Assembly: GCA_001804705.1 (NCBI GenBank)
Contig: MHAY01000038.1
Coordinates: 1,738-65,737 of the forward strand
Length of the DNA: 64,000 bases
DNA from: Ignavibacteria bacterium RIFOXYC2_FULL_35_21
Lineage (GTDB): Bacteria > Bacteroidota > Ignavibacteria > Kapaibacteriales > UBA2268
Reading direction: 5' to 3'
In this document: in pieces, positions 14,311-63,026 of the stretch
Position numbering within the stretch: the first letter of the stretch is position 1
How the letters are laid out: every line of letters begins with the position of its first letter
Program-made: the position numbers and the translations under genes
The notes under the pieces: model-generated
Databases searched by the model: none
What the model was told of the DNA's origin: nothing
What the model saw: only the letters and a program-made list of their open reading frames with translations

Positions 14311-15753
14311 TCAATTTTTATTTCTCTTAGTATTTTTTATCTTTTTAATTGCTTTTTCACTTAAATAGTATTTCCCCGTTTTTAATGGTCCAATATATTC
14401 TATATACTCGATTTTCTTCAAAAAAGCCAAGTCAATGTCAATTGTTCTATCTGATACATCTATATTTTTAGCGAATTCTTCACCAGTTGTAAATTTATCA
14501 GTATAAATTGACTCGAGTATTTTAATTATTCTGTCTAATCTTTTACCTTTTAAAGCGAAATTTAAAGCGAAATTTAAAGCGAAATTTTTAGGGAAAATTT
14601 CGCTATAAAATTCTTTATTTTTTTCGATATTTATACTAACTATTCTTTTAAATATAACAGTAAAAAAATTATTATAATTGAATTCAGCTTTAGGGAGTTT
14701 CAGATTTTTTAGTGCCATTTGAATTCGATTGATACCTGTACCAAGCATTTCGATATACCCTGCTCTCAACATTAATGAAGCAAGTATTGGGTTTCGTGTT
14801 ACACTAATTCGTCCAAATTCAGATGGGTCTAAACCTTTTGGCAATCCCCCCGGATTTGTAATTACTAACCTATCATCAAATATTTCAATCTTAACATTCG
14901 CACCTTTTTCAAAATAATCTCTGTGAATAACAGAGTTAACAACTGCTTCACGAAGCGCTGTTTCAGGTATTTCAAGCGATTCTTCTCTTTGGATACTCTT
15001 AATTGTATAACTTAAATTTAAGTGTTTTTTAAGAAATGTGATTGAATCTTCAACGTTTGATATAATATCTGAATTAAAATCTTTTCTATCAAGTATATTT
15101 ACTTTTTCAATACCTTTATATAGAACACAGGTTACTTTTGATTGAATAATGAAATTTTCAGGATTTTTTGCAAAAAATAATATGCCTGCATTATTTAATG
15201 AATGCTTATTATTTTCTTGCTTTATTAAATCAAGATTTTTCAAAACATCAATAGCTTTATAACTTCTAGATATACCGCAAAGCTTTAAAAAATGAAAAAA
15301 AGAATTATTGTCAAAATCACTCTTAAAATTGAATTTATCGTTGAATAATTCATCAAATCTTATTTTACCTTCATTTTGTATAAAGGCAATTATATCATTC
15401 CTGTTCATCTTTTGAGAATTGGCTCCAACTCTTAGAAAGAAACCTTCGGAACAACGATATGGTTTATCTAATCCTTCTTTTATATTAATTATAACTATGT
15501 TTTGATATTTTTCAATCTGAATGTTAACAGGTGGGTCGCAATTATTAGCTATATCCTGAATTTGCGATTTAATTTTATTATTTAACTCATATCCTATTAT
15601 CTTTCCTTTATCATTGACACCAAGAAAAACTCTTCCTCCAGATGAATTAGCAAAGGCAACCAATTCTTTAGATAAATTTGAAAGAGACTCCTTAAACTCG
15701 ATTTTGTAGCCTTCACCTTCTTCGATAAAAATATTTAATTCGTTTACTGTCAT
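14311..15753 (-). CDS. AlbA_2 (Schlafen-like) plus HATPase_c_4 ATP-binding putative DNA-binding regulator with C-terminal wHTH
   Basis: EGEGYKIEFKESL...AFANSSGGRVFLGVND, then ALREAVVNSVIHRDY...ITNPGGLP. The C-terminal ~70 aa are HTH-like. Confidence 0.7.
   Translation of the reverse strand: MTVNELNIFIEEGEGYKIEFKESLSNLSKELVAFANSSGGRVFLGVNDKGKIIGYELNNKIKSQIQDIANNCDPPVNIQIEKYQNIVIINIKEGLDKPYRCSEGFFLRVGANSQKMNRNDIIAFIQNEGKIRFDELFNDKFNFKSDFDNNSFFHFLKLCGISRSYKAIDVLKNLDLIKQENNKHSLNNAGILFFAKNPENFIIQSKVTCVLYKGIEKVNILDRKDFNSDIISNVEDSITFLKKHLNLSYTIKSIQREESLEIPETALREAVVNSVIHRDYFEKGANVKIEIFDDRLVITNPGGLPKGLDPSEFGRISVTRNPILASLMLRAGYIEMLGTGINRIQMALKNLKLPKAEFNYNNFFTVIFKRIVSINIEKNKEFYSEIFPKNFALNFALNFALKGKRLDRIIKILESIYTDKFTTGEEFAKNIDVSDRTIDIDLAFLKKIEYIEYIGPLKTGKYYLSEKAIKKIKNTKRNKN
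14551..14586. repeat. In-frame 12-bp x3 tandem repeat (NFAL x3) inside the AlbA_2 gene
   Basis: taaagcgaaatt repeated three times exactly. Translates as FPKNFALNFALNFALKG. Confidence 0.9.
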
Positions 15754-15779: not shown

Positions 15780-16214
15780 TCATACAATCTCAATACAATT
15801 CTGTGCTGTTGCTATTATTTCTTCAAGTTCTTTATTTTCGTTGCCTAATATTTTTACTATTCTTTCAGTTGAGATACATTTGATTTGATAGCAGTTCACT
15901 GCAATTTTTACATTCAATCCGTTTTGTTTATTTGGTACAAGTTTGTACAGCCACCAAATTTTATCAAAATCATTTTTCCATGTTGTGATAGGTGCAACTA
16001 TTTTTAAATCCAAACCCACAGCAAAATTGCCATTAATAATAATTGCAGGTCTGATTTTTTTTATATTCATGTTATTTTTATCACTCTTCGATAAACTCAG
16101 AGTGACGCCAGGGTTTGTCATACTGAGCCTGTCGAAGTATGACCCTCCAATTGTCGGATTGAAATCAATTAGACAAATATCTCCCTGCTTTACTTCGATA
16201 GACTTGGATTTCAT
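15780..16214 (-). CDS. PemK/MazF-fold toxin carrying a 21-codon in-frame repeat insertion
   Basis: KQGDICLIDFNPTIGG...KKIRPAIIINGN...VAPITT. 4-nt overlap with the upstream RHH gene. Confidence 0.7.
   Translation of the reverse strand: MKSKSIEVKQGDICLIDFNPTIGGSYFDRLSMTNPGVTLSLSKSDKNNMNIKKIRPAIIINGNFAVGLDLKIVAPITTWKNDFDKIWWLYKLVPNKQNGLNVKIAVNCYQIKCISTERIVKILGNENKELEEIIATAQNCIEIV
16081..16143. mobile_element. 63-bp double-hairpin repeat element inserted in frame in the toxin gene
   Basis: The reverse complement matches 62927..62989 perfectly over both arms (27+26 nt). Only the 10-nt spacer differs. Confidence 0.85.
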
Positions 16215-16495
16215 TCTATCCCATTGTCAATTTCATCAACTAATAAATCTTTTTTGTGTTTATTATAATAAGGCATTGATTCTTCTGTCATTTGTATTAA
16301 TAAAGAAGCCCTTATTTCCTTTGGTAATTTTCTCAGGTCTTTTGCACTCAGTTTTCTTGAATTTAGCTCTTTATTTACAAGTTCTTTTACAACTTGCGAT
16401 AAAGGTTTATTATCAATTGTAGATAATAAATTGAATTTATCTTTTTCCTCTTTAGTAACTCTAATCGCTATCATAGATGAATTTATAGTTTGCAT
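16211..16495 (-). CDS. Ribbon-helix-helix-type antitoxin candidate
   Basis: MQTINSSMIAIRVTKEEKDKF (beta strand plus helix start typical of RHH/CopG). ATGA overlap with the toxin. Start moved to ATG 16495. Confidence 0.55.
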   Translation of the reverse strand: MQTINSSMIAIRVTKEEKDKFNLLSTIDNKPLSQVVKELVNKELNSRKLSAKDLRKLPKEIRASLLIQMTEESMPYYNKHKKDLLVDEIDNGIE

Positions 16496-26740: not shown

Positions 26741-26909
26741 GTCATTCTGAGCGAAGCGAAGAATCTCTTCCCCCCTTATCAAAGGGGGATTCAGGGAGTT
26801 GTTTTCTTTTTCATTCCTAATTCGTAATTACCCGGTCATTCCGTGCTTGACACTGAATCCATAGCCAAAACCCACATCAAATTAATTCCCTTCCTCGAGG
26901 AAGGGCAAG
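26741..26909 (+). repeat. 3'-flank repeat module: 'gtcattctgagcgaagcgaagaatctc' unit plus two-hairpin unit
   Basis: An inverted counterpart lies at 28874..28978, directly after the pyk stop. Confidence 0.8.
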
Positions 26910-28873: not shown

Positions 28874-28978
28874 CTGCCCTTCCTCAAGGAAGGTAATTTG
28901 ATGAGTTTTTAAGGCAATGGATTCTGCATCAAGTGCGGAATGACAGTGTGAGAGATGCTTCGATAGGCTCAGCATGAC
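28874..28978 (-). repeat. Inverted copy of the 3'-flank repeat module
   Basis: The reverse complement aligns with 26741..26767 plus 26835..26909 (roughly three quarters identical by eye), with compensatory stem changes. Confidence 0.8.
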
Positions 28979-62864: not shown

Positions 62865-63026
62865 ATTTAAAGGGTATTACTAAATTGGTACACAAACCAT
62901 TCAAAATGAAGTATAATCATATTAAAGTCATACTTCGACAGGCTCAGTATGACATTCAGTATTGTCACTCTGAGTTTATCGAAGAGTGATAAGAAAATGT
63001 ATATATTTTAGTAATACCATTTAAAG
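62865..63026. mobile_element. MITE-like element: 20-bp terminal inverted repeats around the 63-bp double-hairpin core
   Basis: atttaaagggtattactaaa versus the reverse complement of tttagtaataccatttaaag (18/20 match). Core at 62927..62989. Confidence 0.6.

Follow-up and report, generated by a model that had tools for sequence, protein, structure and literature searches.

Small GIY-YIG nucleases of the Ssn type cut single-stranded DNA (ssDNA) next to NTS/SRM hairpins, repeats that flank their own nuclease gene and number in the hundreds, and these enzymes affect transformation (PMC11893778, Chenal et al. 2025). The NTS repeat is identical to dRS3, or CGTC-1, and the CGTC class, for which no dedicated transposase has been found, also includes RPE-4 and RPE-6 of Rickettsia (PMC3733652, Di Nocera et al. 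2013). Intragenic REP dimers that encode 20–30 amino acids (aa) have been catalogued in several species (PMC3733652), and 2% of the Neisseria NTS repeats lie within genes (PMC11893778). Translated palindromes within genes are already documented (PMC3733652, PMC3184786, PMC11893778), and the REP dimers and NTS copies contradict a preliminary description of the DNA studied here, which took the Rickettsia palindromic elements to be the sole precedent. This DNA is a 64,000-nt stretch (the window) of Ignavibacteria bacterium RIFOXYC2_FULL_35_21 (contig MHAY01000038.1, positions 1,738 to 65,737, forward strand), in which a 63-nt doublet of hairpin units lies in frame within a gene for a PemK/MazF-family toxin. 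Our best explanation as a whole, to which we assign a probability of about 0.6, is that a nuclease-linked doublet landed in a mazF/pemK-type gene and that the toxin most likely has no activity or a strongly reduced one.

A repeat element inserted in frame in a toxin gene

The toxin gene, its upstream partner, the element, and the second copy of the element in the window are positioned as follows.

15780..16214, minus strand: intact, insertion-bearing open reading frame (ORF) of a PemK/MazF-family toxin, 144 aa
16211..16495, minus strand: upstream antitoxin-like gene, 94 aa, with an ATGA overlap with the toxin start
16081..16143, minus strand: 63-nt head-to-head doublet of the hairpin unit in the toxin ORF, translated as (G)SYFDRLSMTNPGVTLSLSKS(D)
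16117..16143, minus strand: left arm GTCATACTTCGACAGGCTCAGTATGAC with a stem of 8 bp; its unit has the CTCAG orientation
16107..16116, minus strand: 10-nt spacer AAACCCTGGC, unlike the spacer of the intergenic copy
16081..16106, minus strand: right arm GTCACTCTGAGTTTATCGAAGAGTGA with a stem of 7 bp; its unit has the CTGAG orientation
16065..16079, minus strand: five extra codons (KNNMN) at the position that one conserved Glu codon, GAA, takes up in orthologues
62927..62989, plus strand: 63-nt intergenic doublet, 63 nt past the stop codon of a gene for a UbiE-type methyltransferase and upstream of a gene for rubrerythrin; arms at 62927-62953 and 62964-62989, both plus strand

The 144-aa ORF matched PF02452 (PemK_toxin) of Pfam with an E value of 3.7e-13 and 50.1 bits, the cut-off being 23.1. 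Its profile matches in the PDB were MazF9 (E 1e-11), EndoA, and S. aureus MazF. When its structural model was compared with the PDB using Foldseek, the best 50 matches were all members of the MazF family (MazF, EndoA/YdcE, and MoxT), with TM-scores by target of 0.67–0.79 and the MazF proteins of S. aureus, M. tuberculosis, and B. subtilis at the top. The Pfam match and the sequence agree with the earlier claim of a MazF/PemK toxin joined to the upstream gene by ATGA, and the overlapping start and stop codons of the pair, in which the toxin is distal, suggest translational coupling. The upstream gene had been assigned to the ribbon-helix-helix type; its antitoxin-like position stands, and for the class the only match was a weak, sub-threshold one to DUF6290 (Pfam, E 0.005). 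No solved structure related by sequence to this 94-aa protein was found. The gene is kept in orthologous loci, where its product is 84–87% identical to that of its orthologues.

The toxin copy and the intergenic copy of the element are both 63 nt long and have identical arms, and the difference between them is confined to the 10-nt spacer. The window contains exactly two occurrences of each arm, and shuffled sequences gave no match, even at 3 mismatches; because of these arm counts and the shuffle control, the coordinates and the description of the two copies given earlier are correct as they stood. The GC content is 0.48 in the element and 0.30 in the remainder of the toxin gene.

Searching 5.8 billion proteins, we found 64 homologues of the toxin, mostly 115–122 aa long, and aligned 60 of them. 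Residues 26–50 of the window protein are absent in all 60, the closest of which are 86–89% identical to it outside the gap. At the DNA level, an empty site was found in four close relatives (loci L007, L008, L177, and L178). All four read ...GGN GAT GAA ATA AAA AAA ATC AGA at the site where the window reads GGA GG[G TCA ... AAG AGT] GAT AAA AAT AAC ATG AAT ATA AAA AAA ATC AGA. The gene order antitoxin–toxin–(Schlafen-like gene)–glycosyltransferase is common to three of these relatives, two of which also have ychF upstream; the fourth lies on a short contig. Relative to the orthologues, there are 75 additional nt (25 codons) on balance, made up of the 63-nt element and a net 12 nt through which KNNMN replaces the Glu codon. 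The 21 extra codons proposed earlier therefore describe the 63-nt element correctly but not the size of the insertion. The borders of the element are ambiguous by 2 nt (GA microhomology), and the additional 12 nt showed no significant similarity to the sequence flanking the intergenic copy, with about half of 5000 shuffles scoring equally. Identical toxin–antitoxin DNA was present in six contigs that had been assembled independently from Rifle-type groundwater samples, which excludes an assembly artefact, and no empty allele was found in the source population among these six contigs. The stretch is a repeat element inserted in frame in the toxin gene. The preliminary description had named two findings that would speak against this, namely homologues carrying the same residues, or an element limited to two loci in a degraded ORF. 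The residues were found in none of the 60 homologues, the four relatives have empty sites, the repeat family is widespread (see below), and the ORF is intact.

Adjoining the pair, between the toxin and glycosyltransferase genes, is a 480-aa gene at 14311-15753 on the minus strand with Schlafen AlbA_2, HATPase_c_4, and HTH domains. L007 has a gene of similar size, with no Pfam match recorded, at this position; L008 and L177 have no gene at this position and have AbiEii genes nearby. The spot next to the toxin–antitoxin pair looks variable and possibly defence-related.

The hairpin family and small GIY-YIG nuclease genes

The two arms of the element are inverted copies of one type of unit, GTCA-NN-CTGAG-NNNN-TCGAAG-N'N'(-TGAC), a 27-nt unit also written GTCA-NN-CTGAGCYTGTCGAAG-N'N'. 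The stems are 8 and 7 bp long, and the loop is 11 nt. The element had been described as a double hairpin, and the two stems are indeed present; as RNA, however, the doublet prefers a single long hairpin (−25.4 kcal/mol, z = −4.6) to two separate hairpins (−18.0 kcal/mol), and its minimum-energy fold is one hairpin of −25.4 to −28.2 kcal/mol, whereas as ssDNA the one-hairpin and two-hairpin forms are nearly equal. The doublet has one stop-free frame per strand, that is, two of the six frames, and both open frames encode peptides of the type xFD(K/R)L..T...V(T/I)LSLSK. The frame without stops that the palindrome has on each strand accounts for the open toxin frame and also for an antisense ORF.

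15943-16422, plus strand: antisense ORF across the toxin and antitoxin genes, 159 aa, almost certainly not a gene

A scan for the doublet architecture, using one genome per species, found at least 120 doublet loci, the majority of them in Bacteroidota; the other taxa, among the matches listed, were Eremiobacterota, Falkowbacteria, Alphaproteobacteria, Spirochaetota, Nitrospinales, Calditrichaceae, and Ignavibacteriaceae. The exact left arm (27-mer) was present in 46 metagenome stretches, with varied partner arms. Across 389 distinct units, the core CTGAGC[CT]TGTCGAAG is conserved, and the two pairs adjoining the core are 92–94% Watson–Crick with all four pair types in use, which indicates that the stem is under structural constraint. 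A search of the whole window against Rfam at gathering thresholds gave no match, and a permissive scan gave only chance matches to C/D-box small nucleolar RNAs. A full-text literature search with the core DNA and typical family peptides, which include FDKLRVT, LSLSKG, and LRQAQGD, retrieved no relevant paper, and a protein-database search with a 42-aa concatenate of the translated repeat gave no candidates.

We clustered the ORFs from approximately 166 fetched loci all against all and obtained a recurrent cluster of 92–110-aa GIY-YIG proteins (PF01541, E 1e-17 to 1e-19); no recurrent Y1-type (RAYT) cluster was found among these ORFs, of which only the GIY-YIG cluster was annotated with Pfam. 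The GIY-YIG gene is bracketed by units in nine loci chosen by their repeats and in two chosen by protein (L139:8700-9300, L019, L020, L059, L067, L110, L126, L155, L168, L179, and L183), and the unit is thus associated with the nuclease in related loci. The usual layout is doublet–gene–doublet, with the stop codon inside a unit in some loci. Canonical units stand on both sides in 10 loci, and L183 has a canonical unit on the 3' side and a degenerate one on the 5' side. In L139, exactly the two arms of the window element surround the GIY-YIG gene. Of the 120 nearest homologue clusters of the GIY-YIG protein, 35 close with an HTSTGSV-type tail; this tail is what the unit encodes in its third frame, up to the TGA of TGAC. 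Another seven have tails read from other frames of the unit. Four GIY-YIG genes were fetched by protein: two (from Bacteroidales and Thiohalospira genomes) have canonical units at or around the gene, and the hairpins of the other two (from Christiangramia forsetii and a Peregrinibacteria genome) are variants on the same general plan. The proteins received no name from NCBIfam, Pfam GIY-YIG being their only family match, and the context of P0066 gave no link of the L139-type nuclease to the source community. From this architecture, which resembles that of insertion sequences, we infer that the nuclease may mobilize the units.

The toxin is not the only gene that carries a doublet. Eleven of the 139 distinct doublets in the fetched loci have an open frame running through them that extends at least 25 codons to either side, and three (approximately 2%) lie in Pfam-confirmed genes, so that such copies are rare yet recurrent.

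L030:601-658: doublet in TsaD of a Falkowbacteria genome, the Pfam match being split around the insert
L026:5658-5711: doublet in an IcmF-like fused mutase of a Bergeyella genome, where it separates the MeaB domain from the mutase domain
L100:7859-7916: doublet in a HEPN_Swt1 protein, after the domain

TsaD is generally regarded as essential. The in-gene share of approximately 2% matches that of the Neisseria NTS repeats (PMC11893778).

Further repeats of this kind are present elsewhere in the window.

62873..63018, plus strand: larger repeat of approximately 147 nt enclosing the intergenic doublet, with outer inverted 12-mers GGTATTACTAAA / TTTAGTAATACC
26741..26767, plus strand: single unit GTCATTCTGAGCGAAGCGAAGAATCTC, 8 nt past the stop of an LpxD-like gene
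28952..28978, minus strand: single unit GTCATGCTGAGCCTATCGAAGCATCTC, 21 nt past the stop of a pyruvate kinase gene
28918..28945, minus strand: hairpin TGTCATTCCGCACTTGATGCAGAATCCA beside the pyruvate kinase unit, by eye like a Neisseria NTS or CGTC-type REP

The larger repeat is 88% identical to L148:3393-3538, and the flanks of the two loci are non-homologous, which suggests a composite similar to a miniature inverted-repeat transposable element that carries the doublet. L148 was considered as an orthologue of the intergenic locus and rejected, as the common stretch is limited to these approximately 147 nt and the flanks are unrelated. The hairpin TGTCATTCCGCACTTGATGCAGAATCCA did not match the published SRM pattern, its likeness to NTS having been judged by eye against the consensus (PMC11893778). 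In genomes nzgw116 (L012, L028, L050, L054, L061, and L085) and MFD03726 (L011, L014, L027, L055, and L089), the doublets have extra conserved flanks that are specific to the genome, and some of these flanks are inverted repeats; each genome seems to have its own longer composite element around the universal core.

Expected effect on the toxin and rival explanations

We located the insert in the protein using an AlphaFold2 model built from a 61-sequence alignment. The core of the model has a mean predicted local distance difference test (pLDDT) score of mostly 82–93 per 10-residue block from residue 51 on, values below 50 are confined to residues 1–3 and 23–51, and strands are found at residues 12–17 and 54–65. 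The family motif P-x-x-G-D-E-x4-R-P aligns with P-A-R-G-S-E-x4-R-P of MazF9, which places the insert in the loop between strands 1 and 2, directly before the conserved Arg-Pro. Homologue alignment and structure modelling, two of the checks proposed with the preliminary description, agree with its placement of the insert in the loop after strand 1, beside the active site. The model predicts the insert to be a disordered 25-residue expansion of this loop. In solved MazF complexes, the strand 1–2 loop lies over the RNA groove and contacts the antitoxin.

Arg55-Pro56 and the P-x-T motif (P75-I-T77) are retained and align with MazF9. The loop Glu, which stands four residues before the Arg in 59 of the 60 homologues, is missing and replaced by KNNMN, and the spacing from Gly to Arg has grown from 6 to 31 intervening residues. 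The E24A mutant of E. coli MazF has no RNase activity and keeps MazE binding (PMC3924284), and the activity of MazF-Da requires G18, E20, R25, and P26 (PMC8634880). Given the lost loop Glu and these mutant data, a loss or strong drop of activity would be expected; the toxin is most likely folded but inactive or weakened, and it may still bind its antitoxin. Of the three outcomes that had been envisaged, namely that the insert silences, re-targets, or de-regulates the toxin, silencing or weakening is favored by comparison with these mutants, and nothing was found for re-targeting. The 63-nt insertion by itself would have left D-E-I-K-K-I-R-P intact, and the change that removed the Glu may have been a second event, after the constraint on the loop had relaxed.

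The course of events that we favor would be as follows. Units of the family that bracket small GIY-YIG genes would be mobilized by such a nuclease, and a doublet was inserted in the chromosomal toxin gene of a groundwater Bacteroidota/Ignavibacteria bacterium after its split from the empty-site relatives. The copy would have survived by virtue of a stop-free frame (two of six) and a length gain that is a multiple of three. With the conserved Gly separated from the catalytic Arg-Pro and the loop Glu removed, the toxin would have become inactive or strongly weakened, while probably still folded and perhaps able to bind the antitoxin.

Several observations weigh against this explanation. The published SRM search pattern, which finds the NTS control, finds 0 units of this family; the window, a small part of the genome, has no GIY-YIG gene; and the solved structures nearest to the nucleases are UPF0213 proteins (1zg2, E 7e-16). 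Ssn-type nucleases are not known to move their repeats, and the flank of the intergenic copy offers no significant match as a source of the extra 12 nt. The low ratio of nonsynonymous to synonymous substitution rates (dN/dS), the intact ORF, the length changes that keep the frame, and the intact antitoxin fit a functional toxin too. The dN/dS of the toxin is 0.08–0.10 against two orthologues and 0.06 between these orthologues. Lineage-specific amino-acid and synonymous changes number 9:11 in the window lineage versus 4:11 and 5:15 in the relatives, an excess of amino-acid change that rests on small counts. Further near-invariant positions have changed (S104I and R112K), and 3 of 46 such positions deviate, which is at the upper end of, but inside, the range for homologues of at least 55% identity. 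The deviation counts and the lineage-specific substitution counts hint at relaxed constraint and are too small to conclude from.

The main rival is a neutral insertion, in which the loop accommodates the 25 residues and the toxin remains an RNase that is active and controlled by its antitoxin. The intact ORF and antitoxin, the low dN/dS, and the retained Arg55-Pro56 and P-x-T fit it, the model draws the insert as a disordered surface loop that would leave the core unaffected, and many intragenic REPs have been argued to be neutral, being in loops (PMC3733652). We nevertheless consider it doubtful, because the Glu of 59 of the 60 homologues is gone, the distance from Gly to Arg has widened by the whole insert, and the equivalent E24A and E20 mutants are inactive. 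An effect at the level of the nucleic acid is unlikely as the principal explanation and can be compatible with the others: a hairpin of −25 to −28 kcal/mol (z = −4.6) approximately 70 nt into the toxin mRNA would cut toxin translation or mRNA stability relative to the antitoxin, all the more conceivable for a toxin that is distal in a pair with overlapping start and stop codons, or the two units, opposite in orientation, would be ssDNA cleavage sites of a GIY-YIG enzyme at this locus, as Ssn enzymes cut beside their motif and have an effect on transformation (PMC11893778). However, neither strand has a T-run after the hairpin, and the window lacks the nuclease gene.

An adaptive insert, whose enlarged loop alters RNA specificity or the response to the antitoxin and thus re-targets or de-regulates the toxin, would make sense of its position over the RNA groove, where the loop meets the antitoxin in solved MazF complexes, and of its being the sole allele across all sampled contigs. 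We regard this as quite improbable, since the peptide is an open frame of a palindrome that is also present between genes, is predicted to be disordered, and has no comparable counterpart in any homologue, and since the in-coding-sequence copies of the family occur in unrelated proteins. Finally, there is hardly any room for the view that no insertion took place, the segment being an ancestral loop lost elsewhere or an assembly chimera: all 60 homologues lack it, the four empty sites are clean, its arms are those of an intergenic repeat, its GC content differs, and the six independent contigs are identical.

Beyond the explanation favored here, one may tentatively go further and propose that the GTCA-NN-CTGAGCYTGTCGAAG hairpins are the cognate repeats of a second, not yet described, UPF0213-like clade of small GIY-YIG nucleases and are still seeding copies, and that selection keeps a dead MazF that binds the antitoxin. 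This wider proposal, which also takes in a cross-phylum repeat–nuclease system missed by the SRM pattern and in-frame copies in essential genes (TsaD and IcmF), is possible as a whole rather than probable. In any case, the locus offers a clean natural example, controlled by empty sites, of a toxin whose active-site loop has been colonised by a hairpin repeat, and a simple experiment on it could show how repeats of this kind disarm or remodel toxin–antitoxin modules. If the nucleases prove to be Ssn-like, there would be more pairs of site-specific ssDNA nucleases and motifs, and CGTC-type REPs and some translated palindromes would, if this is true, be tied to one enzyme class. The part most worth following is the cross-phylum hairpin family around UPF0213-like GIY-YIG genes, which the published motif misses.

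Comparison with known repeat systems

The closest parallels are the Ssn/SRM system and the CGTC-type REPs. Like SRM repeats (PMC11893778), the units are hairpin repeats in the range of 20–50 nt with a 5' HGTCWY tag and many copies, and the inner-facing tags of the window doublets fit this consensus (TGTCAT and CGTCAC in the toxin copy, TGTCAT and TGTCAC in the intergenic copy). As in the Ssn system, the repeats stand on both sides of a small single-domain GIY-YIG gene, here in related loci. The stem and loop of the family differ from those of SRM, with CTGAGCYTGTCGAAG as the core, and the nucleases, known here from sequence, are nearest to UPF0213 structures and may or may not fall in the Ssn clade, cd10448. 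With the CGTC REPs (PMC3733652), the family shares short palindromes with 8–9-bp stems, mostly in head-to-head dimers downstream of genes, as well as in-frame intragenic dimers encoding 20–30 aa and the lack of a dedicated transposase; the layout here is likewise head to head, the tags facing each other across the spacer. Only one of the four window arms has CGTC and the other three have TGTC; the alphaproteobacterial copies have CGTC. Unlike in the CGTC REPs, the loop is 11 nt rather than 4–5 nt, and there is no clear 3-nt tail. By our inference, it takes the counting of tandem G-A pairs and a G-C pair to bring the loop down to 5 nt.

Two further systems and one mutant toxin are comparable in part. 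RPE-1 (Ogata et al. 2000, as cited in PMC3184786 and PMC3733652) is likewise a selfish palindrome translated in frame in conserved proteins; according to these sources, it is approximately 105–146 bp long (PMC3184786) and described only for Rickettsia, whereas the element here measures 63 nt, is part of a cross-phylum family, and has the active-site loop of a toxin as its target. REPIN-RAYT (Bertels and Rainey 2011, PMC3116915) resembles the present system in its inverted, REP-like doublet with a short spacer that folds into one hairpin, and in being non-autonomous and linked to a nuclease or transposase gene that is itself flanked by repeats; however, the tag here is GTCA and not GTAG, and the linked gene encodes a GIY-YIG nuclease and not a Y1 HUH transposase. 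E. coli MazF E24A (PMC3924284), in which the loop Glu is gone, has no RNase activity, folds, and binds its antitoxin, which is the state predicted here; it is a laboratory point mutant, whereas the Glu of the window toxin was lost together with a natural 25-residue insertion. Compared with all of these, what may be new is the nuclease link of this unit, outside the published Ssn-motif pattern.

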